DNA of 64,000 bases from Chara braunii (lineage: Eukaryota > Plantae > Charophyceae): positions 3,629,078-3,693,077 of the forward strand of contig BFEA01000007.1 in assembly GCA_003427395.1 (NCBI GenBank), read 5' to 3'. The position numbers and the translations under genes were made by a program. The notes below the pieces were generated by a model. The model did no database searches, was not told where the DNA came from, and worked only from the letters and a program-made list of their open reading frames with translations. Below, piece by piece: positions 697 through 48,734 of the stretch (position 1 is its first letter; the number at the start of each line of letters is the position of its first letter).

Positions 697-972
697 CTGC
701 TACATGCAGCACGTCAGTGGCGGGGAGCACAAGGGCAGACGTTGACCTAAAAAAAAAAGAAAAAAAATTATTGGAATACAAGACTTTTTTCTTTTCGAAA
801 TCCAGCGAGCGATTGCGTATGTATGTTTTGTCATGTTCGTTATACACAAGTCGAAGAGTGTGTGTGGGGTCCCAGTTGGTGCTTTATTCACGATGTTCAT
901 GGGACACTCGACCCGGTTTCCAACAAGTGGCGCTCCCCATCAATACAGGAGAACGTGTGTGCGTATGTACGT

Positions 973-5336: not shown

Positions 5337-5484
5337 GAGGTAACTTCGGCGCAGTCACGAAAACAGTTTGTAATTGCATTCGAAACTGCGTTTTAGCAGT
5401 TTCGTAAGGGTCCGAGTTTCAATTGCATTTGAAACTTGGCCGTATGCAGTTCAGTCTGGGCCCTCGTCTATCCACGAACAGCAG

Positions 5485-5517
<33 letters not shown>

Positions 5518-6385
5518 ATCCCTTATACTGTGATTGCGGTCCGATACAGGATACTACAGTACTTATCTGGAACAAATAAAGCGTGGAATCCGCCCTGCCT
5601 GGTTGGCAGGGCGCTACAAGAACCTCACAACAAGAAACAAAAAAGGAAAACAACTTGTTTCATGTTCCTCACTTCCTGGTCAGATACATTCCTCAAAGCA
5701 CTGGTGACCTGAGGGTCTTCCCGATGTAGGTGGATTCGAAGTTCCTCGTTTCTTTACTTTTTAATTTCTTCTTTTTCTTTTTTCTTTTTTTGGCCTTCAT
5801 TCCTGCCCCGAGCCCCCCACTTCTTCGCAGTAGTCTACTCTTGAGACTTCGCGTTTGCCTGTGAAGGGTAGTGCCTGTGAATCTCGGTTGTGGCCGAGAC
5901 ATCTCGGCCGTGGCCAATCTGGGGTATGGCCGAGACATCTCGGCCATGATCAGTCTGAGGTGTGGCCGAGACATCTCGGTCGTGGTCAGTCTGGGATGTG
6001 GCCGAGATATCTTGATCGTGACCAGTCTAGGGTGTGGCCTAGATATCTCGGTCGTGGCCCAACCATCGGGCTGTTTTTTTTGTTTTTTTTTTTCCCAGCA
6101 GCAGAGCGGTGCGGCGAGGCAGGCGACCAAAAGAAAAGAAACAAAAGAAAAAAAAAGAAAAAAAGAAAGAAACGGGCTGCAGCGCGGCGCGCGCGGCGCT
6201 CAACCGAAACGGGAAAAAAAAAAAAAAAACGACCATGTGCCTGACTGAACTGCTAGAAAAAGTCAGCCCGAGTTTCAAACTGCTAGAACGCAGTTTCAAA
6301 TGCAATTGAAACTCAGGCCCTGACTAAACTGCTAAAACGGAGTTTCAATTGCAATTACAAACTGTAACCCTGACTGCGCCATAGT
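5337..6385. mobile_element. Non-autonomous Mutator-like DNA transposon with ~90-bp TIRs
   Basis: GGCGCAGTCA...TTTCAATTGCATTTGAAACT at 5348-5436 is the inverted copy of ~6292-6380. TTTTTTAAT occurs on both flanks (~9-bp TSD). Removing the element restores the LINE-A ORF2 frame (KAIIELKKLEVRKHTEW). Confidence 0.8.
5890..6060. repeat. 36-bp tandem repeat x5 with near-palindromic core GGCCGAGACATCTCGGCC
   Basis: Units start at 5891, 5927, 5963, 5999, 6035. Confidence 0.9.
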
Positions 6386-7246
6386 TTTTTTTTTTTAATT
6401 CTATTATTGCCTTATTTCTTTTCTCTGACCAGTAATAGTTTGTGAAACAGGTCTCCTCCCATCCTTTCTTCTGCCTGGGTAATCTCCCTTAGGAGTTGTT
6501 TCTCTTCCCACTAGTGTGCTGCAACAAGGATTCTTAAAAAATTCATTAGTGTGGATCTTATTATGTTAATGCCTACTTCCGCCCACTCTTGTTGGTCTTC
6601 GAACAGATCCGTTGCGTTTTCCCAGCACTGCATCCGTTCTGTGATCCATTCCTTAATCCCCCCGTCCTTCAACAGATTCGCGTTGAGTCTGAACAAAGGT
6701 CTTTCTTTTTGGACGACGTTGACCGCTATGACGTCCATAAGTACCGGATAGTGGTCAGACAGAGATGCGTATTGGACATCTGACCAGCAACACCTGTCCC
6801 AGGGGGCCCCTCGTGCCAAGATCAGATTTAGACGAGTTATGGGGGGCTGCGTTCTTTTTTAAGGCCGTGGGCCAAACCAAGAAAATCCATTAGTATCCGA
6901 GTTAAGAGTCCGGTAGACATCACTCAAAACTTGTGAATCTATCCCCAAGCTGAAATTTCAGCCACGCCAGTCTTCCTTCTGTATCAGTGCAAGAGTCTAG
7001 TTCGATAATATTAACGTTCTTATCTATAAGTATGACCACCCCACCACATGTCCCCACCGCTGGAGACCATATCTGGGGACCGTCCCAAAAGGCGGCCGCT
7101 TCTCTGATCTTTTCGGTGTTTATTTTTTTTTCTGCATCCCAATTATTTGCACATTCTTCCTGTGTATCTAGACCCTAAGCCTAACTCTTTTATGTATGTG
7201 CGTAGTCTTCCCTAAGCCACGTATATTCCAAGAGGCGATGCGCAGC

Positions 7247-11504: not shown

Positions 11505-12677
11505 ATGGTTCCTGGCAATTGGGCTCAAGTAGGGAGGGCTCAAGCGGGTGGCAAAACCCAGGATTGGCTTTTGGTGAACGGGTATGTACCAGGCCCCTGG
11601 CCCGGATCGGGACAGGCACTTGGCAATTCGAGCAGCGGCGTACCAGGATTAAATGGCACACAAGCACCCGTACCGATAGGACAATACGGAGGACAAGCAT
11701 CTGTACCGTCAGGCAGCCAGGTAATGGGGAACGTGGGTGCAATCGGCCTCGACCAAGGAGGCATAAGAGCGAATACACAAATGGTTGGGACTTCGGTTAC
11801 GCATGGCCAGGCACAAGGAAACTCCGGGGCAGGAGCCTTTGGCCTCTTTGGGGAAGCCGCAAGGGGAGGAGGAGCTACGGGTGGAACACGGGGTGAGCAG
11901 GAATCGACCAGCACCCCCAACCGCTCAAGAGGCAAGGGAATGGGGAAACAACGAAGACTAAGTTTGTCATCACATCCAGAGGTAACACCCGAGAACTCAA
12001 GAAGCTCAAGGGTATCAAGGGAAGACTCAGAGAAATCCGTCGGCCATGAAGTGAGGGCAGTCACACCAGGAAACAAGACCACTCGTGACAGAAGGTTAGC
12101 GACAACCGCCCGAGTGCAGGGAACGGAAATGCCACAGTATCTCCTCCCACTTCTGTGCACTGAGGTCCGGAATGCGAAGTGGGTAATTGCTTGGCAAAAA
12201 GGGTTAGGCCCGTTATCCCTTTTTGCTCAAGTAGTCTCGGATTTACCGACGTTAGCGATAATAGAGGATAGTCTGAGAACTCTGTACTTGGGAGCCTTCC
12301 CGGTACGCGTTATTCAGGATATACCCACGCCAAGGGTCCTGTTTGGCCCAACGGAAAACAAGGTAAAGTTCTACCTACCAATTGTAAACGCGAGATTGAC
12401 AGATAGCAAAGTCACGGAGCTCGAAGCACTTAGTCTCCGCCTTATCCCCCTGGCCTTGTTCGTTGAATGTAAGAAGCAAGAACTGGCAAGGCTGGTGATT
12501 TCCCCAATGATGATCCCAGCAGATGCGATAGCAGAGCTAAAAATTCGCCTCCCGAAAGACAAGAGGTTAGATTCTCAGTTCATGCACTCGGCCCTCACTC
12601 AGGTTTGGAATGGAGGAGGAGCATCATCATCGGCCCAAATTCAACCGTCATTTGGCAGAAGCGATAGGAATGGTTAG
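11505..12677 (+). CDS. LINE-B ORF1, C-terminal part
   Basis: 390-aa open frame. QYLLPLLCTEV...WVIAWQ...FPVRVI is clearly homologous to LINE-C ORF1 EKWLLPIICSLV...HVIAWQ...FPVRLV. Overlaps the ORF2 ATG at 12670. Confidence 0.8.
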   Translation: MVPGNWAQVGRAQAGGKTQDWLLVNGYVPGPWPGSGQALGNSSSGVPGLNGTQAPVPIGQYGGQASVPSGSQVMGNVGAIGLDQGGIRANTQMVGTSVTHGQAQGNSGAGAFGLFGEAARGGGATGGTRGEQESTSTPNRSRGKGMGKQRRLSLSSHPEVTPENSRSSRVSREDSEKSVGHEVRAVTPGNKTTRDRRLATTARVQGTEMPQYLLPLLCTEVRNAKWVIAWQKGLGPLSLFAQVVSDLPTLAIIEDSLRTLYLGAFPVRVIQDIPTPRVLFGPTENKVKFYLPIVNARLTDSKVTELEALSLRLIPLALFVECKKQELARLVISPMMIPADAIAELKIRLPKDKRLDSQFMHSALTQVWNGGGASSSAQIQPSFGRSDRNG

Positions 12678-13037
12678 ATATCGAGTAGTCTCTTGGAATT
12701 TGCAAGGCTTTGGGGATACGACGGGTAGGGATAAGCGAATGAGGGTTAAGTTCTGGCTTCATGACAAGAAAGTCTCTATTGCGTGCCTACAGGAGACGAA
12801 ACTCGGTCTGGAGAAGATTCAGGTATTAGGCAGATGGTGAGATGGACCGCAGATTTGGTCTGCAGCCAAAGGCACGAAAGGCTGTGTTGGGATCTTGGTA
12901 CATAGGGGCACCTTGGCCCAGACATTGTAGATTACTTCGCTGATCTGTGGGGCCGTTGGGCCTGGGTGTTGTTCAAACAGAGAGATCTCGTGTGGGTTGT
13001 AGTCTCGGTATACGCACCAGTAAACAGGAGTGAGCGA
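12670..13037 (+). pseudogene. LINE-B ORF2, N-terminal APE part before the insertion
   Basis: MVRYRVVSWNLQG..CLQETK..SVYAPVNRSER, continuing at 20413 as VTFFDEL..GGDLN. Confidence 0.9.
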
Positions 13038-14799
13038 TATCCAGCGCATCAGTCCGGCACCGCACAAGGCAGCGCGGGACCCTTCCGGCCGCGTCACGCA
13101 GGAGTTGGCCTAAATCCTCGTCGTGAATATACATGGAGCTTCCGCAAGCCGCTCCGACCGAGTGCGCCAGCCATACCTCCCGCGAGCCACTACGACAGGA
13201 TAGGACCTACGCGAGGCACGACTTACCTCCACCTTATGGGAGTTGTCACCTCCCTTCGGTGGGCGTATCCCCGCCGAGCTACCAATCCACAGTACGAAAG
13301 TTGATCAGTTGCAATCGCAGAGGTGGACCAGCCGAGGGCGTTTCTCATTCGCTGTAGCATAGGGTGTACGCGTGATTTTACGCCTGCATCAGACCCGCAC
13401 GCGAACCGACATCTTGGGGGGCTGAGGTCCCACGCGCGACTCGCCGTCGGTCGACTAGGACGCATCTCACTCACCACACATACATCATACTACGAACACA
13501 AAAATAAAACACACACACACACACATCAAACAATGAGGCAACACTCCTAGTCCCTTCAGTAGCCATCCCATAACCTTCTAACGCGGAAATCGGATGGGCG
13601 ACGTGCACAAGACTTAGTATAAAACCGCGCGAAGGCAGGACCTACTCATATCGACTCGCAATGCAAGCGTACGCAAGCGGTCACAATGATGGCGTACTAT
13701 GTAGTGCCCATACTCATGCGATCCTCTTTAATCTCGAGGGTCGCGTTCGACACTCAAGTGTCGGCTCACACTCGCCTTGAGGGATTGATCTCTCAACGCT
13801 GGACAACCGCCAAGTGCAGTTGAGAACCACACCCTCTCCTGCGCCCTGCGGAAAGTGGGTGGTACACAGGTTCATACCTGTGGTAGCAACTGTCTCTTAT
13901 GGCCCTGGAGACCAACTCCATCATCTAGGGCCTGGAAATAAGTCAAGGGGTTTGACTTTGATGGCTGCCACGGACTACAACGTCCAACCATAGAAACTTC
14001 TAAAAACCAAAGGCTAAAAGGGAAAGTTCCATTTTCTCTCAAAAACATAATTTATTTAACATTTACGTGTGGTCACTGTATGGCACACGAAACACTGAAG
14101 ACACATATATTTACATATATAGAGAGGGTTATTTATATAGGACGATCACTTCTAGTAGTCAAAGTGAGACTTCTCTCAGGCATATATATGTATATGATCG
14201 CAGGCAGTCAAATCCAAAGTTCGAACCACCCGAACATACCTGCAATCACATCGAAGAGTCAACCAAAAGTCCATGCACTACGCGGGGTCAACTTCAACCA
14301 CTCCCTGCACTCATATCCCTTGTTTTAACCATGCAGACCTCACTCTTGTGCAACTCTTCAAAATAAAATAGTCAGTATTTTTCTTTAAATGATCATTCAT
14401 AATAAAGTCCGGGCAAAAACACAACAAAACAGTTCAAATCACAAGGCTAAAGCCTTTAGGTTGAGTGACAGGAGTGGATTGGAGTTGAGTCGTAAACCGA
14501 CGAATCGGCAACCGACCTGTTATCAATGATAATAGAAGATGATCTTCGTAGGATCGAACTGAATCTAGCTCAAGTCCTGAATCAATCGATTAAGAAGATC
14601 TGAAACACAAGACAAGTCAATCCTCAAGCTGAAATCATAAGTGTATGGAGAATACAGCTTCATTACACATTCTCACCCAAGATCCTTCTTCAAGCTAAGC
14701 CTAGACATGTCTCAAAGCCAGTGTCCAACGCAAGCCAGACCTATGGCAACATTTTTCCTATTTAGGGTGGATCGTCAAAATCGCCACCTGTCAAAATAT

Positions 14800-15130
14800 A
14801 ATCTAACTCCTCTAAACTAAGAAAATTTCGGCAGCGCTTCCCGTAAGAAAAGTGTCTTTCCAAAATTTATATCAGCCTAAATATGAAGACAGAAATAGTC
14901 TTCAACTTTCCAAAGTGCAATTTTTGTCTAACTCCTCGAATTAGCAAAAATTTGGGCAACACTCTCTTTAGAAAATGAGACTTTCCATATTTTTACTAAG
15001 TCATATATAAAATTTAGACAAGTTGAACTTTGAAAAGTCAAATTTTGACTAACTCATTGGATTTGCATAAATTTCGGCAGCGCTTCCCGTAAAGAAAGTG
15101 ACTTACCAAGATTTATATAAACCCAAGTAT
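14800..15130. repeat. Degenerate ~123-bp tandem repeat x3
   Basis: CTAACTC...AAATTT(C/G)GGCA(G/A)C units start at ~14803, ~14928, ~15049. Confidence 0.75.
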
Positions 15131-15409
15131 AATAATTGATCCAAAAAAATGCAGAAATCGACCTAAGTAAAAAACTTGGCTCAGAAAATGCAGGAATTTG
15201 AACGAACTCTTATCGCTCTAGCACGTGACGAGTCTCTAAAGCAACTATCTGTTAAACTGAAACTCAGACTAAGTAGCGATGTCACTCAACCACATGCAAG
15301 GTCAAACCACAAAGGTAAGTACTCTCACCAACCCAAATCACCTTTGGCAAACAAATAGTTCATAGTATTTCAATGATTTATCCTTTTATACCCAGCTTAC
15401 ATAGGGCAT

Positions 15410-16233
15410 CGAGTTGGGTCATTCATCTTAGAAACAATGTCAACTTTTGACCTTAGTTATACACGAACAGGTTGCGCAACTACTTTTTTTTCCATTTGGC
15501 ATATGATTAAGCCATTCGTCTTAGAAACAATGCTTAGTCGCTCTGATCTTGTTTAAATAGGCAAGTTGTGACGATATATATGAAATTAATATTCAAAAAT
15601 GAGCGAAGGGCTGGACCATTCATCTTAGAAACAATGCTCAGCCGGCCCAAGTTACCTTCAGTTATAGCTCTTAGTTATACTCTCTTAATTTGTGATAAGG
15701 CTATAGTCAGACCATTCGTGTTAGAAACAATGTCTGGCTAACCTTGTTCTTATAAACATATAGATATAAAAATATAGAAAACCTTATTCCCTTGTTCAAA
15801 TTATAATCTTGAGGCCTTGAACTTAGACCATTCATCTTAGAAACAATATCCAGTCTTTGGCATGAATCTCCCTCAGAATAAAACAACCAAAAGAGTTGAG
15901 TCATTCGTCTTAGAAACAATGTTCGACCCTCTTTTCTCAGTCAAAAAAAAAAAACAGAGTACCCTTGGTCAAGACCCAGAGACTGTTCAAAAACCACCCA
16001 AAAATAAACAGCGACCAGATCATTCATCTTAGAAACAATGTCTGATCCTCAAAGTTTGCACAGTCAATACCCCAAAGAAACAACAACCAGACCATTTATC
16101 TTAGAAACTATATATGGCTGAATAAAATAAACATAGCGACCAAGCCACTCATCTTAGAAACAATGTTTGGCCCTTCTGAAAACAGAACAAAACACAACAG
16201 TCAGGTCATTCATCTTAGAAACAATGCCCGACC
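15410..16233. repeat. Array of ten conserved 20-bp hairpin cores separated by unique spacers (CRISPR-like layout, not CRISPR)
   Basis: CATTCRTCTTAGAAACAATG at 15420, 15513, 15617, 15713, 15829, 15902, 16021, 16093, 16146, 16207; distances between cores 33-99 bp; each core flanked by a copy-specific inverted repeat. Confidence 0.92.
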
Positions 16234-17988
16234 CTATAAGACTCATTCAAGCACAAGCAAAACTGCCTTCCTCCCAACCTTCCCCCTGATGTAACCCCTT
16301 TTTGTAATATGCTTTCATACAATCAATAAAAACTGAAACTGAAGTTGCGCATGCATTTTTTTACTTAGTCTGGGTTATGTCCTGAAAGTCAAACCCAAAG
16401 TCAACAGAGGATGCATGTAGTATACTCAGTCAAACGTAGTAAGAAATACAGATAGGGGTCATAACGGGGTTTACAAGGGAAATCAATGATTACCTTTCAA
16501 TTCCCTACCTCCAGAACTCCTCCTGAGTTTCGGCAGAGCTCCCGCAATTGGTGGGGCGAGCCTCCCACATAGGCTTTGGCATGGATTACGGGTTGCAATC
16601 CCGCCTGCCGCCTTCCTCTCAGAACCAATAGACCAGACTTAGAGTCAGAAGGGCAGAGGTAGAATGATTCAGTCTCTCAGATCCAAGGAAGTTCCACTCA
16701 GACTTGCGTCAAAGGGCCTTCAAATCTTCTACGCCTGAGGGCCCCGCAAAGGTGACCAAAACCGACAGTCTGGTCAACGTCGTCAAACTGCCGAAGTGGC
16801 CCCTCCTGACGAACTTCCAAATCACAACAATAACCTTTCTCCCCAAGCCTAAGCCACTCCTCCAAGTCGTCGCAGCGGCCTCCTTCATCGAGGCACGATA
16901 GTCCCTACGGTCGATGTAGCCAGCGGCAGCCAGCAATAACCAGTAGCAATTAGCAACTGCTACCAGTAACCCAGAAAACTCAGCTTCACCGGTTATCAAG
17001 AAAGAAAACACAGTCCTCCCCAATGCCAGGTACCTCCCCCAGGTCAAAGCGTGGCTGCAGTCCACAACAACCGCACCCCCAGTCCACAACAACTGCAACC
17101 CAAAGTCTGAGTCTGCCCCTGCTCACGCCCGACTCTCCTTCTACTGCCCTGATGACTGGGAAGAGTTGCGCCGCAGCCCGCAGGTAAGTATTCAGCCTTA
17201 CTGCTATCTCCCGCTGCTACTCTTGTTCAATCAGGACAGGCTGCGAACCAGCTAATCGGTAGGCATACAACGCATAACTCTCTTCCCCAGTGCTCCGTTG
17301 ACTGGGACGAACAGCGCAACAGTCCGTAGTAGGCTCAACAACCGCTGTTGTGGCTCAGTAGCCGAGGCAGACTGCGGAGCCCACCACAAAAGCGCAGCAA
17401 GGAATGTTGTGGCTTCTCAGCCCGTCCTTCCCTCCCCGTGATAGCCGCTGCGGTGCGGCCCAGCACCAGCAGCAAGGCTTCAACACGAAAAAGCGCGGCA
17501 GCCAGAAGCGCAGCACCCCTGCCACCCAACAATCCCAACCTTCAGTCACAGCAAGGAGCACAACACCTTTTCGATCCGGCAGGTGAGTTCACTTTCCCTC
17601 AGTCTTTCTGCCTCGCATGTCCCGTTTACTGTTTCCGCTTACCAAAAAAAATGACCGTTGCAGAGGTTGCCTCTCCAGACTTCAGTTCAGGGAACTACAA
17701 GGCCCCCGGACCTTCTTCCAGGGAACCTACACACGGCCCACTCGGAGCTTTCGTAGGTCCTCGTCAGTACACATTCTAGTACTGCATCTTCGACTTTCGG
17801 TTCATGCCGCATCACCGACCCTCCGCCAGTTACGAGGTAAGTTTCCATTAGCTTTCCCCACCTCCCTCGAGCTCATGGTCTCACACACAACCCATTTTTT
17901 CCATAACTACTAACCCACTGCCTCATCACTAAATACTAACGTTATCAATCAACTCGCTCACTATAAAAATGTTGGACTATCATTTTCC

Positions 17989-18552
17989 TTCACTCGATTT
18001 CAACAAGAATCGAGTGAAATCTCGGTTCTTTTTCTTTTATCGCCCCTTCTTCCTTCATATCCCACGCACTAACTTTCTCTACTAACTCCTGTTTCACTAA
18101 TCTTCTCCTAATCCTATCCTCGAAATCCGGGTCGCCAGCCCCCAAAACCTCTGATTTCAATCCTCCCTCGTCCGATCCTGCCCGGAAACGAGGGAGATAT
18201 ACATCTTCCACCTCCTTTCCTCCTCACTCCTCGTCATCTCTGCGCGACCGTTTTCTTACTAACTCCTAGCTCACATATCTAGAGCTAAAGCTAACATTAC
18301 CATTCAATTTGCTCGACTTAGAAACCTCGGATTTGACTCCTCCCTTCCCCAAATCTATCCATTATCGAGGGAGATACGCCCCTTCCCTTCTTCTTCTTTT
18401 CGCCTTCCACCATACCTCCGCGCACAGCTTTTTCTTTCTATCACCTATCTTACTAACCTTTCGTCGAAACTGACCTTACCATCGGCTTCGTCCGGGGCCA
18501 AAACCCCGGGATCGCCCCTTCCCTCTCTCGATTTCGTCAAGGATCGAGAGAG
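17989..18552. repeat. Four hairpins spaced ~174-183 bp apart
   Basis: TTCACTCGATT/AATCGAGTGAA (17989-18018), CTCCCTCG/CGAGGGAG (18163-18196), CTCCCTT/GAGGGAG (18340-18373), CTCTCTCGAT/ATCGAGAGAG (18523-18552). Confidence 0.7.
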
Positions 18553-19120
18553 TTATGCCTTTCTCGTTGTGATACTCTCCGCCATCTCCCACTTTGTTCC
18601 CGCATGAACCTGGCAAGGCCCTACGTCCGGGTTCTCTTCCCCTTTTTCTATTTCCCCCCGCTTCCTACTTGTCCCGCTCCCCTTTCCACTTGGCTCCTCG
18701 CTGTTTTCCTCGACCCAAAAGCGCACAAGTGCGGCCTGCCGATGACCCCATCCGTTTCCCCTTTGGCCGGTAAGTAGCCGACGCGGTCACTCCGCCGTTC
18801 GACGCCCACACCCCCCAAACTTCTCCTTACCGCTAGGCCTTCGAACCACTTGCCCCCCCTCTTCCACATGTAGTACCCGGTGCAGTTTCTCGCCCGGGTT
18901 CACTCACCCCGTCATTGCCTCTTCCTGGTCTGCCCTTTGGTCAGCCTCGGTCAGGCGGGATCGGCCACTACCTTGGGCCATTAGCGGCCGCCCGTACATG
19001 GACAAAGATCATGGAATCGAGAGTGAGGGCCTACTGCAGGCCCGAGACACGGCTCCATGCGGAGCAGTCCCGATGCAGATCTTTTAGTGGTAGTAGCAAA
19101 TATTCAAATGAGAACTTTGA

Positions 19121-19154
<34 letters not shown>

Positions 19155-20412
19155 NNNNNNNNNNNNNNNNNNNNNNNNNNNNNNNNNNNNNNNNNNNNNN
19201 NNNNNNNNNNNNNNNNNNNNNNNNNNNNNNNNNNNNNNNNNNNNNNNNNNNNNNNNCCCCCCCCCCCCCCCCCCCCCGAGGAGGGTTCTGGGCAAAACAA
19301 AGCCACACCGTGACCCCGCCCTGGCTCTTCGGCCGCTACCCATGTATAGTTCAACACCAACGGGACCTGGCGGGTAGGCTCAACTCAAACCTCTCACAAC
19401 AGACGTCGGGGGCGGATTATACCACTGCCACAGCCCGTACCACCATCTGGTCGCGACCCCACAGGCCCACTCGGAGTGCTCTCCAAATTCCCTCGGCTCT
19501 CCAAGTGAGAAGTGAGGGAAGCCACGACCACTAACTCCACCATCCTTACGCACGTCGACCTCTTTGGTCCGTGTTTCAAGACGGACAAGGTCGAGGAAAT
19601 TTCGTCGGCACTTCGAGTACCCCTGAATCCACAGGTCAACCAAAAGAGACGTGCACTCGAGGTCCTCGACTGCCGTGACGGCCACCCGTGGCCGGTGTCA
19701 CGTCCGACTTACAAAAAGTCAAAACAGTTGAATAATAATGACATCAAACAATAATAATTAATGTTTTAGAAGTTTTTAATCGTTAAAATATGACGACGAG
19801 AAAAAAAGGAACCACTAGCGCGTCTCGATGCTGCTGACGGTAAAACCAAGGGAGGTAGCCGCGTCGGGCCCTCAACCCTTCGGTGTCCTACGTGCTATTC
19901 TGATCCCCTCACGTTGTCGCCGCTCGATCTCGATCCCTGAATCCTTTTGACGAAAGTCTGACGCTGTAACCAATAGTGCCCTGCGCAAGGCCGAGTCTAG
20001 TTTTGACGGACGCCTAAATAACTCGATACTGCGCGACGTGCAGACTTACCGAAACATTCCTAGTGCCACCTTGTCGTCGATGCCGTCCTCCGTACGTAAG
20101 CACAAGTCACAGGCAAGCGCACCAATAAAAAAAACTATTTTTAATCCTAGTTTAATCAGAGAGAAAATCTAAGCCGGCGACCAACGCCGGTTTTCACAAT
20201 CATCAATCAAAGGTAAAAAGATCACGCGCGCCTCAAACCCTGCGCGCCCACACACTCTCTACTCTGGTCAACCATCTAGTCACGGAAAATCACAAACGCA
20301 GGCGTGCCTCACGCGAAATACTTAATATTTTAAACCAAACCTATTTTTTTCGTTGTTTGCAAAAAAAAACAGGGCGGATACCCTTGTAAGGGTATTCGCA
20401 CACCGACAGCGA

Positions 20413-23400
20413 GTGACCTTCTTTGATGAACTAAGATTAGTCTTACCAGATGCGGATCACATAGTGTTAGGGGGGGACTTGAACACCTCCCTAGACACTA
20501 ACCAGTACCATTCCGGGTGTCCGAAAGACTCTCTGGCATAAATCGATCTTATGGCAGACCTGAAGCTGCAGACTCATACCGCTATTTAAACCCGACTGAG
20601 CAGGGTTTCACGTGGTTCTCTCATCGCGGGCAGGGTAGAAGGCTAGACTACCTCCTGACGGTCAGGAAACTTAAAGAGGGACTGGTCAGTGTGGCGGCAA
20701 TTAATAGTCCGATCTCAGACCATAAGTCTGTGCTGGGAGTATTCAATCTGGGTCAGGACAACGCTCGAGGCCGTGGCTACTTCAAGCTGAACACAACGAA
20801 CTTGAGAGTGAAAGGGATGAACGAGTAGACCTGGGAGTTTTGGAAGAGGTGGGAGAAGCAGAAGGAGAACTTCCCGACCTTGGCGGAATGGTGGGAAGGG
20901 GGAACCAATACTATATCTAACTTTCTGAACTGTTTCTCCAAGATTTTGGCTCTGCAAAGGAATAAGGAAGAAAAAAAATGCTGAAAGAGAATCCTAGACG
21001 CTGAAGAGAAAATGAAACAACATCTCACCTCAGAACTGGTTTGGGGAAAAGAAAGGGCTCGCAGGATGGCAGAATGGGACGCGCTGCAGCAGAAGAAGTC
21101 AGACGAATGGACAAAGCGGTTGAAAGTTAAAGGTCTCGTGGTGTACGACAGAATGACACGAGAGACCTTTCAAAGATTGGCCCCGTCCAGATCCGGCCCA
21201 ACCATGAAAGAACTGAGACATCCGTTCGAAGAGGAAGAACCAACACCAGTAGCCCCGACCGATCTCTGCAGATATGTGGTGCTCTACTACCGGGACATCC
21301 TGACCTCTAGAAGGGTCGAGGAGGGACCAGACGCAGACCTCTTAGTAAACTCATCTCACTGGGATAACACGAAAGTCAGACTAAGCACGCAAGGCCGGTT
21401 AGACCTGGATCGCCAAATCACAGTGGAGGCGGTTGAAGAGGCCTTGAAGGTGATGGCCAACGGCAAGATACCAGAAAACGACGGGTTGCTGACGGAGTTC
21501 TACAGACAAGACTGGCGGGTGCTGGGAGAAGACCTAGTCGCGGTGTACAACGAGATTCAACTAGGAGGGAGACTACCAGTCAGTGCCTGCAAAGGTATAA
21601 TCTCACTGTTATTCAAGAAGGGAGATACGAACGAGATCCGGAACTGGAGACCTATCTCGTTGCTAAATGTCTCATACAAAATCCTAGCTAACGTGCTAGC
21701 TAGGAGACTAGGTAGATATTTCCCACTGTTGGTAGCAACTGATCAAGCAGTCTTTGTGAAGGGGAGATTGATTTATGAGAATATAGTGACCGCGATAGAG
21801 ATTCTGAAGGTAGTGGATCAGGAAGACTTGGACTTTGCCATCCTTCTCCTGGACATGGAGAAGGCATATGACCGGGTGAATTGGTCATATGCGATAACCA
21901 CTCTGAGATGGATGGGGTTTGGCGAGAACTTTTGCACCTGGGTGATTGCTTTGTACTCCCTCTCAACTGCCTTAGTCATGGTTAACGGTCATATCTATGC
22001 AAAGTTCAAGATCTCACGTTCCCTCCGCCAGGGATGCCCGCTGGCGCCGCTTCTGTTCGTGGTCCACCTGGAAGCCCCGCTAAACAACATATGGGCGCAC
22101 GAGAGTATAGTTGGATTATAGTTGGGCCAACAGGTCTGCAAGGTGAAGGCCTTATCAGATGATCTTTTCGTGGTCACCAAAAACACAGCTGAGTCGATGA
22201 CAGCTCTGCGAAAGTGCCTTAGTCAGTATGAGCTCCTCTCCGAAGCAGCTATTAACTGGTCAAAGTCTTTATTTTTTCTTCCGGAAGGCTCCCCACCTGC
22301 TGCAGAATGGGGAATGAGGAGGATTCAACAAGACGAGTCGAAAAGATTTTTGGGAGTCCAGGTGGGACTGAAATCGTGCATCATGCGACAAAAGGCGATT
22401 TTTCAAAGCAAGGTTCTTCAGAGAATGAACACTTGGGGCATGGCCCCCCATTTGTCACTGTTAGGAAGAGCATTGGTGATCAATGTAGCGCTATTTGCTC
22501 TACTCACCTTCGTTGGTAACATCAGACCGCTAGGGAGAAAAACACTAACGGTGGTGAAACGGAAGGCAACGAGGTTTGTCTGGAAACCTTACGCAGAAGA
22601 AGGTTCCAACGTGATGTCGAAGGTAGCGTGGGACCTCATCTGCGAGCCCAGAATGGAAGGCAGATTGGGGTTGGCGGACCCAGGGAGAAGGAATACAGCG
22701 ATGTTGGCACAGTGGGTGGTCCGCGCTATTTGCTCAGATAAAAACCCGCACTGGTTACTTCTGGGGGAACGTATCCTGAGTAGGGAATGGAATCTCAAAC
22801 GTCCTGCAGACGTTTGAATTTGCATCTGGATTAATTGTTATCTTAGGAAAATAATCAACTCAAAATTCTGGCAGGCCGTTCTAAGGGCATGGAGAAAGGT
22901 TAAACCGGAGGGTTGTTGCCCACCAAGGACAAAGGAAGATGTTTTGTCTCAAATCATCTTCGAGGACCAGAAGATAAGGGATCGAAATGGCCAGATGTTA
23001 ATGGCGAACTCTGCATCAGGGAGCTTTGGGAAAGCCTGGATGGAGCATGGAATCTCCCGTCTGAGAGATCTGTGGAACGCCCTCACAGGGACCTGACATC
23101 AGGATGAGGAGCTCGAAGCGAAGCTGAAACCAACAAAATTCATAAAAGAAAGGAAAAGGCAAGTGCTCGAAGCGATTCCGGAGGAGTGGCTTCAAATCCT
23201 GGATCCGGCGGGGGTTAACCCAGTTGGGACATGGTATGAAACCACCCCAAACGCAGAAGGCAGAAATTTTTTGAAATTGGTGGAGTTGTCGGAGGTGGGT
23301 GGCAGGAAATTCGAACAGTGGTACTCTCAAGGAGAGGAGGGCACCCTGGTACAATATGAAGGCGAAGGTCGCTGGGTAACGATACCCAAAGGCCAGGTTC

Positions 23401-24265
23401 AGGAGATACGAGTGAGGGAATCCGTCGATGAAGGAGTGTGGACGGTCACGCCATGGAACCACGGTCAACCAATAGCAGAACAAAGGGGGACCCAAATGAG
23501 TGGGGTTGCGGAGGAAAGGGGCCTACGGGGGATACTCTCCCCCTGGACGGTTACTCCTTGAAACTTGCCTACGAAGTGCAGCAACCAGCGAAGACACCTC
23601 TCATGATGGCCACATAAAGGTGGCAACGGGTTTACCCAGAAGAGAAGTAGAGTGGATCAGCGGGGCACTAAAAAAATGCTGGGAGCAAATCGCAGAGGCG
23701 CCAAACGCCAGGGCAGCTTCGCTCCTCTAGCTGGAATCGCTGCTGGCAACCCCTTCAGTTGTTTCCCTGATAAGCCGTGACTGCAAGGTTGAGGCTCAGT
23801 GCAAAAGGTGCAGGTGGCCATTTGAGTCCACCACCCACATCTGGTGGGACTGCTCAGCGTCAAAACGAATCTGGGAATGGTGGGACAAGGAATGAAAGGT
23901 GTAGACTAGGGAGGGGCTAATCTGGGATAGGAAGTGGGTGCTCTTGGGAGGAATCCCTGAAGAGTTGCAGTTGGGGAAGGGATGGGGATATGTTGCTCAG
24001 GCTGTTCGGGCAGGTGAATTTTGGGTCATCTGGATGGAAAGGAAACAGAGCTCAGTTTGAGGGGAAGATCATGCCAGACTCAGAAATCAAGTCCACCTTC
24101 AAGATGGAAATCAGACGAATGATACAGGCAAACTAGAGAAGGAAGGTGGTTTCAAGTAGGGGGCGGGGAACAAGGTTGACATGGTTCAGAGAAACCTGGG
24201 CTCAGGGTGGGAGGCTGGTGACCATAGGAAGTGGCGATAAGCTACTCTTCTCATACTGGCTAGTT
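20413..24265 (+). pseudogene. LINE-B ORF2 remainder (APE C-terminus, RT, C-terminal region) with stops and frameshifts
   Basis: RRLDYLL, SDHKSV, NWRPISLLNVSYKIL, LLDMEKAYDRV, RQGCPLAPLLF, ALSDDL, KVAWDLIC. Confidence 0.93.
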
Positions 24266-24471
24266 AGCTAGACATACCAGGGCACTCGGTTGGCATCCGC
24301 AGTAGGAGGCAGAAGTGAGGGGGGTATTGAGAGTGTCCAGAAGTAAGTGGAACTGAGTTAGGTTCCAACCGCCGCCGTAGGCCGGTTGAGAGTAGATCTT
24401 TGGTAAAAGGAGCTCTTCATCGGTTTGCTTTACTGTTTGGGGCTTTCCTTTTTTACTTTTCCAGTTTCTCA

Positions 24472-24908
24472 GGGGCTCGTTCGACACTCCTTGGGGCGTC
24501 CTCGGAGCCCGAGGAAAAATTCCTTTTAGTCAAAAGGAAATTTGGGCCCTTCGTTCCACTTCCGATAACGTTTCCTCGGAGCGATGTCAAAAAAGAAAAA
24601 AGGAAAAAAAAAAACAAATGTGCTTAAGGCCTTCAGCCAATAGAGTGCCGCCACGATCCAGATTCTCGGTTGTAACGTCTCTCTACGCGTGTGTCCGCTC
24701 CTCTCCGTGAAACGCGTATTCCTTTTGCCCAAGGGACCTCGTGAGGTCCCTTGGGCAAAAGGGAGAAATGGTTGGGGAATCCTCGAAGCCCGAGGAATTT
24801 CCTTCGGAGTGTTTTCACTTTTTTTTTTCCCGACTGCAACCCCGAGGATAAGTGGAACGAACAATTCCTCGGGGACTTTACGCGCCCGAGGAGTGTCGAA
24901 CGAGCCCC
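24472..24908. mobile_element. Tourist (PIF/Harbinger)-like MITE, 437 bp, in the LINE-B 3' UTR
   Basis: TIR GGGGCTCGTTCGACACTCCT / AGGAGTGTCGAACGAGCCCC; 3-bp TSD TCA at 24469-24471 and 24909-24911. Confidence 0.88.
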
Positions 24909-25402
24909 TCATTCCGTTTCTCTCTACTTCTTCTTCGCATTAAAGTAGACATCGTAGGTTGGGTAGTAGATTGACAGGTAAGTTGGGGAGGGGTTCGTTG
25001 TGCGAAATAAGTCCACTTTGGGAAACAGGGTAGGGTTTTTTTTTTTTTTTTTTTTTTTTTTTTCCTGGAAACCTGCTCCTTTCTATTCGTGGGGAGCTGC
25101 ACGAGTTGGGAATCGGGCCCAACGTCCCTAATAATATTCGATAGAGGCCGGGGTCCTCACAGTCTACCCGGAGTCTGGGAGCATTACCCAGTTTCGCTTA
25201 CGGGTCGGAACCCGAGGGGACCAACCCCCTGGACAAGCAAACATAACATCAAAATCCCTCTACAGTTAAATACTCATACACGCCCCTAACACGGGGCGCT
25301 GGAACCAAGTTCCCAGCGGACCAATTGACGCTCCTAGCGAACCCCGCCATCCCCTTTCTACTGCCTTCCTACTGTGGAAATAGAACCGAGCGCCCAGGTA
25401 CG

Positions 25403-28400
25403 TCACAAGTCACTCAGGAGCCAATCATTCAACACCAGATTACTCTCCTTGATCTCTGCCAGTGTTCCCCTGGCAGCCCACGTTGCCTCGAACCAGGCCA
25501 TTCCACTGAGCTTCTGTTTGGCACAGGTCACCTTCCGTCTCCAGTCTACCTTGATAGCATGTCGTATGTGCCTTTTTGCAAGTTCCTTGATGTTCTTGTC
25601 GGAGATGAAGCGGCCTTCGAAGGTGTTTTTGTTCCTGACCTCCCATATTACCAAGAATAAACACGCCCTGAGGGTCTGCGCTACGTATCCCCATCCCTTG
25701 TCCAGGCTCAGTCCTTGTGGTACACCCCCAAACAGTGTCCAGTGGTCATCCCAATCGAAGGCGGGACCACTTATCCGCTCCCATTGGTTTTTCCACCAGA
25801 CCCAGATCCTTTGTGACAGTGGACAGTACAACCACAAGTGAGTGGTAGACTCAAAAGGATACTTGCAACGGGTGCACTAAAGTGAAATTTTCATCCCTCG
25901 TTCGGCTAACCACACTGCCGAAGGAGTAGCTAGGAGTGACAGCAGCCACAAGAGTGCTGCTGCCCTTGGTATTGGAATCCCCTGCAGTTGGGCCCAACAT
26001 CTTCGGATGTCCTGGAGCACAATTTCCTCCTCTGCGGTTCTGACTTGTGCCCATCTGCTGATAGCTACTGAGGCCGGAGTTCTTCCGGACCTCAGTAGAT
26101 CATGTCCCCCGGCTGAATTGTAATCTGTAAGTCAGGCTTCCTGTGAGACCAGAGCTTGGGGTCTAAGCGCAAAGTGCGGACTGGGGCTCCGTCCGCCCAC
26201 ACATTGCAGTTCCATGTACCATCTTCGGTGCAGGCTTCACGGACCCTTATCTGAAGTAGCCTGCCCAACGGTCTGTTACACAGAACCTCGCTGTCCGGGA
26301 CTCGTAGTTGAAGGGCTTCTGAACCAGGGTCTCTCGCCCATGCCTGGAATTGTCTGCTACCATCTGTTTCATATGCTACCAACTTCCACATTTCTTCAGA
26401 TTGCTCAGGACAGCCACCCAAGTTACTAGTAACAAACCAGGTCCCCGGGGGGTCAGCTCCTTCTGGACTCAGGAGGAGTTTCCACTCCGGGGGGATGGCC
26501 GCCCTCATTTGGGCTGCCCTTTCCTGTGTCTGTCCTAGTCTTCCCAGACTAATCCTCAGGTCCTCATCTTTCTGCCATTGTCCAGTTGTCTCATCCCAGA
26601 GGTCTGCCACCTTCAGGATCCCTCTTTCAATCCAGGCCCTCCCAAAAGCTTTCGGTGCAGTGCCTGCTGAAAAAGGCCTGCCCTTCTCGTTCCGGATGGC
26701 TGGGTTGTCGAAGAGGGGTTGCATTAATACCTCCTCCCTGGTAACCGGTGGGACCCACTGTCTTGGGCCCACCTTCCTCCAGGCCTTTAGGACGTCGTTC
26801 CAAAATTGAGACTGTGTACGCCTGCGCAAGAATGAATCCAGCATGCAGCAGGTCCACACGTCTCTTGGTTGTGGTAGATGCCAGTCCTTTGCCAGTATCA
26901 TCTCTGCTAGAAGAATCCAGTGGTCCTCAGAGTTGCCTGAGATTACTTCAACCAGCCATTTCGCGAGCATCGCTGCATTTTGACAGGCTGGGTCTAGCAT
27001 CCCCAGTCCCCCTTCGTCCCGCGGGGAGCATATCAAGTCCCAGGCCACTTTGGTGATGAATCTATTTGTCTCTTTACCGACCGACTTCCACAAAAATTTA
27101 GCTGCGACTCTGGGGACTACCTTGATTAGCTGCTTACCTAACGCTCTAACCGTACCAACAAACCAAAGCAGGGCGAACAGCGCCACATTGGTGACTAGTG
27201 CTCAGCCGAATAACGAGAGGTGTTGGGCTGGGCCCCACGCTGCAATGCGACAGACCACCCTCTGCTGAATCAGGTCATTCTGAGTATCGGTGCATCTTCC
27301 CAGTGCTATCTGCACGCCCAGATACCTTTCTGAGCTGTTACTTGTCACCCTTTTCATTCCCCACTCTACAGCCAAAATATAGTTCCCTGGAAGCAGATAA
27401 ATAGACTTGTTCCGGTTTACAGCCGCCTCCGAGAGGCGGCAGTACTCAAGGAGGCAGTCCTTCAGTGCCAGCATTGATTCCTTGGAGTTCTCAGAGATAG
27501 CCATGAGGTCATCCGCAAGCGCTTTTACTCGGCACTCGCGGTGCTGCACTTGCAGTCCCTGAATTTGTGGGTGCTGTCTAATGTTACACACTTAGCCCTC
27601 CAGCTGAATTACAAACAGGAGAGGGGTGAGTGGACAGCCTTGGCGCAGTGACCTTGTGAGGGGGAATGCCTCTGAGATGTGACCGTTAACTGTGACTGAT
27701 GCAGTCGAAAAGGCATACAGAGCAATGACCCATTTACAAAAATTCTGACCGAATTGGAGGACTTTCAATGATGTGAGTACATAGGCCCAGTTCACCCTAT
27801 CGTACGCTTTTTCTAAGTCTAGCAGTAAAACCGCCATGTCTATCTCCTCTTGCTGAATCCATTCTAGTGCCTCAATCGCCGTCACTATATTATCGAAAAT
27901 TGACCGGCCTTGGATGAATGTCGCCTGATCTCTGTTTATCAGATCTGGTAAGTACCTTCCTAGCCTCCTAGCTAGCAACTTTGCTAAAATTTTGTACGAT
28001 ACATTTAGTAACGAGATAGGCCGCCAGTTTCTAATCTCAGCTTTGTCCCCCTTCTTGTACATGATGGTGATGATGCAATGGGCCATGCCTTTAGTCAGTC
28101 GACCGCCAATCAGGATTCCGTTATAGATCTGCAACAAATGCGGGAAGAGAATGTGGCCGTTTTGCAGATAGAATTCTACCGGGAAGTCGTCGCCTCCCGG
28201 TGATTTACCCTTTGCCATATTGTTGGTGGTTTCCACTATTTCTTCCAGCGAGACTAGTCTGTCCAAATCCAGTTTGCCCGACGTTGACAGCCGGACAGTC
28301 AGTGTGTCCCAGTGAGTTGAATCAGAAGACAGATCCGTGTCCGGTGGTTCCCCAGGCCTCCGTGAGGTTAGTATGTCCTTGAAATACATGACTGCGTATG

Positions 28401-47849: not shown

Positions 47850-48734
47850 CCGAGAAAAGCCCTTATGCAAGGCCTCTATCCTGGTGGTGGTAAGAGAACC
47901 ACCGGGATTGAGGCTTGCCTGGCGGGCAGCTCCATCTATTGGTGGGGAGCAACACCTGCTGGAAACCGGGTCCAGCGTCCCTTAGATACATCTTTATACA
48001 CAGTACGTTTTAAAGGAGACGCCTTTGCGCTGGTAACTGGGTCCAGCCTCCCATCCAATCCACTATACCAGACCTATCTTGCAGCAGGCTCGGCTATTTG
48101 GGGGGACCCACTGGGGGGCACCAGTGGAGCCTCCTCCAACCCCAGCCCCTGCCATCCACCTACTCTCCTTCTGGCGCCTCTTTATATTTGAAACTATCTT
48201 AGAAGGCTGGGATAGACAGTACATTGCCAATGCTGCAAACCGGGTCCAGCGTCCCATATTGATGACAGAAATGCTGAGACAGAGTACATTGCCAATGCTG
48301 GAAACCGGGTCCAGCGTCCCATATCAGTGCTGTTCATCCAACCAATCCTGCAGTGTATCCATCTGCTGCGGTCCCTCNNNNNNNNNNNNNNNNNNNNNNN
48401 NNNNNNNNNNNNNNNNNTCCCTCTGCGGACCATTAGACTGAACTTGTAACCGAGAAAGCTGAAACAGACAGTACATTGCCAATGCTGGAAACCGGGTCCA
48501 GCGTCCCATATCGGTGCTGTTCATTCAACCAATCCTGTAGTGTATCCATCTGCTGCTGTCTCTCTACTGACCATTAAACTGAACTTGTATTGGAAGGGAC
48601 AGAATAGACAGAGGTAAACAGGGATGGGCAGGGATAAGCAGTGATAGACAACAAGAGAAGGAACCGAAAGAGGCAGAGATCAGAAGAGAACAGAAGGGAG
48701 CAGAAGTAGGGGACCACAGAAGAAGAGGGCAGAA

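Follow-up and report, generated by a model that had tools for sequence, protein, structure and literature searches.

The window analysed here, 64,000 nucleotides of the genome of the charophyte alga Chara braunii, contains an array of ten bulged hairpins that share a core sequence and differ in outer stems that still pair. A structure under selection in this array is real. We propose, from the sequence and with a probability of about 40%, that these hairpins are a repeated docking signal on the RNA of a mobile element, which would be read by a putative element-encoded protein such as Gag. The array is not a eukaryotic CRISPR.

Ten hairpins with a shared core and paired outer stems

The search for the core CATTCRTCTTAGAAACAATG with up to three mismatches resulted in ten matches, all on the plus strand and with the cores within 15420-16226 (starts at 15420, 15513, 15617, 15713, 15829, 15902, 16021, 16093, 16146, and 16207). 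There were no matches in any of 100 shuffled sequences, which confirms the ten-core array of the original prediction. The base before the core is C or T in all ten units, so the predicted pyrimidine is also there. From left to right, the gaps between cores measure 73, 84, 76, 96, 53, 99, 52, 33, and 41 nt in an array of 36% GC. The spacers are thus of 33-99 nt and shortest at the right end, and they are unrelated to each other, as had been described: the largest z among 72 comparisons of spacers within the array is 2.4. A simple diverged satellite, the outcome that would have spoken against the prediction, does not account for spacers that cannot be aligned with one another. A covariance-model search of the window found no units beyond these ten (background matches had E values of 0.03 or worse), and a search for tRNAs found none. 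The positions of the units and of the element that holds them are given in Table 1.

Table 1. Positions in the window of the hairpin units, the insertion, and the interrupted LINE (WC, Watson-Crick pairs in the outer stem).
Feature	Positions	Strand	Remarks
Host LINE, first half of endonuclease region	12670..13037	+	interrupted by the insertion
Whole insertion	13038..20406		starts TATCC.. and ends ..CCGACA; flanked by GCGA; contains an N gap
High-copy part holding the array	13038..16870		depth measured over 13300-16795; likeness to L003 ends near 16868
Unit 1	15412..15446	-	arms, bulge base, and 20-nt core; hexaloop 15425-15430
Unit 2	15505..15539	-	6/7 WC
Unit 3	15609..15643	-	5/7 WC
Unit 4	15705..15739	-	6/7 WC; G at 15720 private, family has C
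Unit 5	15821..15855	-	3/7 WC; position holds two units in L003
Unit 6	15894..15928	-	4/7 WC; family A at 15925 converts T-G to T-A
Unit 7	16013..16047	-	6/7 WC
Unit 8	16085..16119	-	5/7 WC; three core changes
Unit 9	16138..16172	-	5/7 WC; C at 16148 private, family has T
Unit 10	16199..16233	-	5/7 WC
Host LINE, remaining endonuclease and reverse transcriptase region (decayed)	20407..22817	+	

The outer stems were scored as 70 cells (ten units of 7 bp). With a bulge of 1 nt, 48 cells are Watson-Crick, against 16, 22, and 15 with bulges of 0, 2, and 3 nt. Permuting the arms between copies gives 32.8 ± 4.1 such pairs (p = 8e-5), and the excess persists without units 1, 5, and 8 (37 of 49 against 25.3 expected, p 4e-4). 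Hence, the stems do differ between copies and yet pair, as had been proposed. The units are 90% alike in their cores and 45% alike in their outer arms. Because 136 of the 140 arm bases keep the purine/pyrimidine pattern RRYYRRR / YYYRRYY, the variation of the arms consists almost entirely of transitions, and exchange by transitions only is expected of stems that evolve through G-U pairs. The 22 mismatched cells include 9 G-T, 9 A-C, and 4 others, consistent with the statement that the two kinds are about equally common. Significant covariation across copies had also been anticipated, and the window units have a covariation score of 0.446, reached in none of 500 shuffles, with two-sided change at 7 of 12 pairs; the shuffles used for this array and for the relative described below ignore relatedness, and related units can exceed them without any structure.

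The quality of the units varies. Copies 5 and 8 had been called degenerate, which is correct for unit 5; unit 1 had been omitted and is equally poor (3/7 in register, with better pairing after a shift of 1 nt), and unit 8 has a damaged core while its arms still pair. Unit 5 may be a fusion of two units, given the two found at its position in the relative. The hairpins of the window fold weakly on both strands (mean -6.6 and -8.3 kcal/mol, mean z of -1.1 on each), the DNA folds amount to 2-6 kcal/mol per unit, and the predicted occupancy of a 3-bp inner stem on the minus strand is low (0.00-0.43). The 4-bp stem with a 12-nt loop proposed for the core is a possible fold, but one of several: the relative points to a shorter stem of 3 bp and a loop of 6 nt, and RNAalifold applied to the window units returns a third register that differs from both. 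The inner fold of the window units is not fixed by covariation because their core is invariant.

A relative with another core

The search of a metagenome collection resulted in one matching record, L003, which may represent another subfamily from the same genus; the comparisons beyond the window copy draw on this one relative and on pooled contigs. L003 aligns at 70% with window positions 15481-15794 and 16132-16868. From the position of unit 2 onward, it has 11 units against 9 in the window. Its counterpart of unit 2 (L003 26-43) has lost the core and pairs perfectly over 7 bp, with two paired changes relative to the window unit, and position 3 holds its only unit with the window-type core. 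The remaining units include one with an intermediate core and eight with another core. In all of these eight (8/8), AACTTA is invariant and closed by CTG/CAG, CAA/TTG, CTA/TAG, or CCA/TGG. These inner 3-bp stems are Watson-Crick at 23 of 24 positions (15.0 when permuted, p 6e-4). The other-core units show two-sided change at 10 of 15 pairs and a score of 0.738, reached in none of 500 shuffles of the kind described above, and RNAalifold finds the same fold unaided, with two-sided change at 9 of 13 pairs. Selection on a single-stranded structure, as originally predicted, is thus supported by covarying stems in both the window and L003.

The two core types can be reconciled. The core of the window reads TTC-RTCTTA-GAA, exactly so in seven of ten units, and matching it to the L003 fold gives as common unit a 3-bp stem capped by the 6-nt loop RWCTTA, which reads UAAGWY on the minus strand; the CTTA part of the loop is kept in both types. 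The stretch between the arms is 21 nt in both, and the other-type cores of L003 are 66% alike. Spacers 2-3, 3-4, 4-5, and 5-6 align with the L003 spacers at matching positions (z of 4.6, 12.7, 4.0, and 4.4), i.e., four of the eight that can be compared; spacers 6-7, 7-8, 8-9, and 9-10 stay below z 4 (1.3, 2.3, about 0, and 2.6), and there is one off-diagonal match, of an 18-nt spacer (z 4.4). The alignment by position shows that the spacers descend with the element and that the core is the part that turns over. About half of the 21 nt has changed identically in six or seven units, which would need copying between units. As concerted evolution, it is unusual that cores are replaced while the stems around them remain matched by position.

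These results contradict the label CRISPR-like, since the spacers are irregular (33-99 nt) and inherited by position, and the core, not the spacer, is exchanged between relatives. The uniform repeats of a CRISPR are absent as well: the shared part is only the 20-nt core, set between gaps of 33-99 nt. No cas genes were found among 32 frames searched in Pfam, which matched LINE domains and gave one sub-threshold match. The proposed search for a foreign source of the spacers, which covered phages and plasmids, gave no significant match (best E 0.3 and 0.07, respectively). The suggested comparison with Rfam gave no match at family score (E of 1.3-4.7 at best, with nothing over the array of the window), and the IRE, snoRNA, and ribozyme families are unmatched. 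In viral contigs, the 20-mer has two single matches, neither with neighbours or stems, and a two-unit pattern of the other core occurs at 36 loci, with no full-length model match and nine fragment matches (E 0.4-1). Two further patterns gave no matches in viral contigs, and two scans of prokaryote genomes gave none either. A literature search by title and abstract opening, which covered few subscription papers, found no published account of this array; the accessible part of PMC8557442 has nothing on a Chara element.

The relative also provides information on the strand that folds. Read on the plus strand, the eight L003 units have 24 A-C against 4 G-T pairs among 112 cells (p 2e-4 if both kinds are equally likely, 0.025 once base composition is taken into account), in a fixed register that fits two of the units poorly; this excess indicates the minus strand. 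The minus strand of L003 is the more stable in 10 of 10 units, both by energy and by z-score, and folding of the whole array gives more expected pairs on the minus strand as RNA (119 against 73) and as DNA (82 against 63). In the window, the minus strand is the more stable in seven of ten units by energy and in five by z, and whole-array RNA folding gives 72 pairs on the plus and 58 on the minus strand. Hence, these predictions point to the minus strand as the active one in L003, and the window copy alone gives no clear answer. Such a bias in wobble pairs is compatible with RNA as well as with single-stranded DNA.

Beside the array, positions 16480..16680 are a non-coding block that is well kept in L003; it folds no better than shuffled sequences (z -1.0 and -1.6) and has no two-sided changes. 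We also considered placing the array immediately ahead of a TATA box (16235), of a poly(A) signal (16326), and of the end of an LTR (16473), and rejected this as none of them is kept in L003.

The insertion, its family, and its transcripts

The array lies in a 7.4-kb insertion that splits the endonuclease of a LINE. The endonuclease frame stops at the left border and resumes in frame at the right one, the two halves overlapping by two residues on the related protein P0079; the 28 best protein matches of the LINE reverse transcriptase are all from Chara braunii. The insertion is flanked by a 4-bp target-site duplication (GCGA). With its high-copy family (see below), this confirms the predicted location in a eukaryotic mobile element. 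Compared with the TG...CA of an LTR, the right end is CCGACA, and the left end, TATCC, starts with TA, one transition away from TG. In the Chara gene model P0121 (CBR_g31276), unrelated sequence is followed by the same left end, at 84% identity. By back-translation, the residues that precede this match (V-G-H-I-G-P) could correspond to a start TGTCGG and hence to a 6-bp terminal inverted repeat; comparison of the two ends revealed no longer direct or inverted repeat. There is no second LTR in the window. None of the 13 frames scanned in the insertion matched a protein family, with no Gag, integrase, or recombinase found, and protein searches from two of its frames were empty; the sole protein match is the Chara gene model that swallowed the same left end. 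From its ends and the 4-bp duplication, the insertion would be a solo LTR or a similar remnant of an LTR retrotransposon. Concerning the marks of a Penelope-like pLTR, the insertion has one loose CTGA.GA..GAAA, which lies outside the array, and L003 has none; there is no tandem arrangement and no Rfam match; since Naiad/Chlamys elements also lack hammerheads, a missing hammerhead does not exclude these.

Around 52,000 contigs per DNA run align to 13300-18800, three quarters of them with less than 95% likeness. Their summed depth, which is not a copy number, is 15,000-26,000 over the array and approximately 30-130 in most bins after 16796, single contigs having depths of 10-22. This shows that the array family is very abundant and diverged. 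The 40 differences listed, out of 1424, include nine near-fixed family differences within 15410-16233. Three of these nine affect a core or a stem (15720, 15925, and 16148), and the family base restores the motif or the pair in all three, so part of the imperfection of the window copy is private decay. Read joints that suggested gain or loss of units were discarded, because 25 letters at 16053-16015 resemble the next spacer and the joints probably reflect hopping to the best match.

RNA coverage of the family is thin. Over four bins of the array, RNA run X6 has first mates at 23.6, 8.0, 23.2, and 35 on the minus strand against 12.2, 6.7, 7.2, and 4.1 on the plus strand, and first mates on the minus strand correspond to plus-strand RNA in most stranded libraries. 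Run X5 leans the other way at a depth below 2. In the two runs, 94% and 89% of the aligned RNA reads continue into sequence unlike the window, i.e., they are partial fits. Oligo-dT capture may have biased these counts towards the A-rich plus strand. No sharp read ends were listed at the units, a weak test in poly(A) libraries.

The reads show further features outside the array. At 16428-16611, X5 has a strong signal on one strand (36.9 against 0.24). The loose ends of its reads come from a variant of the family, and the signal possibly marks the start or end of a transcript beside the array. At 17645-17740, one-strand reads reach a depth above 6000 in X6 as a partial fit and consist of two pieces in swapped order, joined from 17737 to 17655. 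These pieces resemble antisense large-subunit rRNA, a likeness that Rfam did not confirm. Around 25 bases at 19555-19590 resemble a conserved stretch of large-subunit rRNA on the minus strand, which the searches did not confirm either.

Other elements of the insertion and of the window deserve mention. Splice-donor-like words occur in the insertion at 15313, 17182, 17581, and 17835 (plus strand) and at 13228 and 18909 (minus strand), three of them within 660 bases of the low-copy part. Diverged tandem units with very high depth lie left of the array (14802-14987 and 14927-15130); they contain TTTCGGCAGCGCTTCCCG twice, and a variant of it is found at 16528. A hairpin, GGATACCCTTGTAAGGGTATTC (20375-20396), lies 10 bases in from the right border of the insertion. 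A second family of small hairpins, similar to GCTGGAAACCGGGTCCAGCGTCCC, has nine copies in the window, five of which cluster at 47958-48507 (plus strand), with others at 2445 and 25105 (plus strand) and at 517-541 and 900-924 (minus strand). Several directly follow the 3' end of a minus-strand LINE, one has paired stem changes, and the hairpin may be a LINE 3' signal. Finally, a MITE-like insertion of around 1 kb at 5342-6386, also within a LINE, has inverted ends of 95 nt (86%) and contains a 36-nt tandem repeat.

A proposed repeated docking signal and its place among known systems

The fixed loop, the stems that are free to change as long as they pair, the wobble on one strand, and the ten-fold repetition together suggest a site on a folded single strand that a protein recognises. 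Repeated stem-loops with a shared loop and a free stem, the mark of a packaging signal, are found in the array. In the reading that we favour, which corresponds to the first of the roles originally suggested (a multivalent protein-binding or packaging scaffold), a minus-strand transcript would fold into a lower stem, a 5' U-rich bulge of 1-4 nt, a 3-bp upper stem, and the UAAGWY loop. The simplest reader would be the element's own Gag or nucleocapsid protein acting on genomic RNA, and many weak sites could add avidity for selective packaging or for RNP assembly. The 21-nt core would have been copied across the units of this subfamily by template switching or gene conversion, while stems and spacers stay in place. 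A change of core across a subfamily would fit a partner protein that changes with the element, by analogy with VANC. Pushed further, this suggests a rewritable address code, which is a rather unlikely extension: the most abundant retroelement lineage of Chara would keep its scaffold of stems and spacers and overwrite every 21-nt cassette simultaneously as its RNA-binding protein changes; packaging or protection would then be confined, in each subfamily, to the RNA of that subfamily. To our knowledge, how plant and algal retroelements select their own RNA for packaging is largely unknown. A ten-fold hairpin with natural variants in a very abundant family offers a ready test of RNA selection and, if the docking reading is true, a naturally occurring eukaryotic counterpart of the MS2 tag and its reader.

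The strongest of the alternatives, even if unlikely, is that the reader is an RNA-binding protein of the host, which would export, stabilise, or localise the element's RNA or shield it from silencing. All the structural evidence fits it equally, and the CTTA kept across core types is what a slowly changing host protein would require. The wholesale change of core in a subfamily would be easier with a fast-changing partner encoded by the element, and no known element bound by a host protein was matched in Rfam.

It is improbable that the hairpins act as single-stranded DNA, in first-strand cDNA or an extruded strand, as sites of pausing, priming, or attC-like recombination, with core swaps and gain or loss of units as the products. 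DNA also tolerates G-T better than A-C, the minus strand of L003 folds better as DNA (82 against 63 pairs), and this would be the cDNA strand if the element is transcribed on the plus strand, as X6 may suggest; the number of units differs as well (11 in L003, 9 in the window). Against this, attC sites keep their stem boxes and vary the loop, the opposite of the array, no recombinase was found in the insertion, and the DNA folds are weak, at 2-6 kcal/mol per unit.

We give still less credence to binding sites in duplex DNA within an LTR control region, comparable to Sirevirus palindromes or VANC motifs, in which the pairing of the arms is incidental. This would leave unexplained the paired changes in the arms, the covarying inner stem, and the strand bias of the wobble pairs; in its favour are the 20-mer repeated unchanged ten times, the short palindrome TCTTAGA, and, as far as the accessible text of two studies goes, the precedent of subfamily-specific motif arrays in non-coding regions of transposable elements (PMC4728375, PMC5735166).

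A neutral origin, in which an old palindrome decays as a repeat homogenised by conversion and the covariation stems from ancestry and a bias towards transitions, is slightly less credible again. The arm changes are almost all transitions, the equal G-T and A-C counts of the window copy fit decay after insertion, and the shuffle controls ignore relatedness. However, pairing exceeds a permutation that preserves the make-up of the columns, the stems pair while the spacers have diverged beyond alignment (z up to 2.4 in 72 comparisons), and in L003 four different pairings of the inner stem surround an invariant loop.

Sites for small-RNA processing (CRISPR-, TIGR-, or miRNA-like) that release spacers or arms, or a decoy for the target of a 21-nt small RNA, are the least probable reading despite the repeat-spacer layout and the exactly 21 nt between the arms in both core types, as the spacers vary in length, are rich in A, descend with their position, and have no significant match among phages and plasmids. 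At 10-14 bp, the stems also fall short of typical Dicer substrates, no effector gene was found in the frames scanned, and no sharp read ends were listed in the poly(A) libraries, itself a weak test. Sirevirus palindromes, which are described as siRNA hotspots in the accessible part of PMC4728375, are the precedent for it.

Several known systems resemble the array in part. It shares with CRISPR the alternation of a conserved 20-nt core with unlike spacers and differs from it by irregular, inherited spacers and variable repeat flanks, with neither an outside source nor a cas gene found. Integron attC sites have conserved stem boxes, a variable loop, gene cassettes, and an integrase, whereas here the loop is fixed, the stem is variable, the spacers are too short for genes, and no integrase was found. 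HIV TAR, HBV epsilon, and the IRE consist of a lower stem, a 5' pyrimidine bulge, a short upper stem, and a 6-nt loop, in single copy; the units of the array have the same layout, but in many copies and with another loop sequence, and CAGTG does not occur in the array.

The following comparisons rely on the accessible parts of the cited papers. TIGR arrays also have tandem units with variable and nevertheless palindromic stems; they are prokaryotic and carry two variable guides of 8-12 nt between box C and box D, whereas the inside of the hairpin is invariant here, and they adjoin a gene with a Nop domain (Tas), of which we found none in the frames scanned (PMC12045711). The VANDAL elements have arrays of short, subfamily-specific motifs in non-coding regions that are thought to co-evolve with the VANC protein of the element (PMC5735166). 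VANC binds duplex DNA and its motifs multiply by tandem duplication of whole repeats (PMC5735166), whereas in our array the core is replaced, stems and spacers stay, and pairing is conserved. The LTR palindromes of the maize Sireviruses Ji and Opie are similar in having several copies, variable in number (mean 7.3), of a motif that forms hairpins (PMC4728375). Their arms are conserved and their centre varies, the reverse of a fixed loop on arms that vary in pairs, and Sireviruses are Copia elements with GC-rich repeats, in contrast with the 36% GC of the array (PMC4728375).

The closest likeness is with single-stranded RNA viruses, in which multiple weak stem-loops with a shared loop and a 5' bulge serve as packaging signals (PMC6281560). 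These signals, including those similar to the MS2 TR and those of the HBV pregenome, have a shared loop motif, a 5' bulge, and free stems as in the array (PMC6281560). They are dispersed and lie mostly in coding RNA, and MS2 combines an (x)xYA loop with a bulged A (PMC6281560). The array, in contrast, is clustered and non-coding, belongs to a eukaryotic element, and has a 6-nt loop and a putative reader protein. The array thus adds to the repeated cis-acting hairpins of mobile elements, and what is new is a variant with an unusual turnover of the core.
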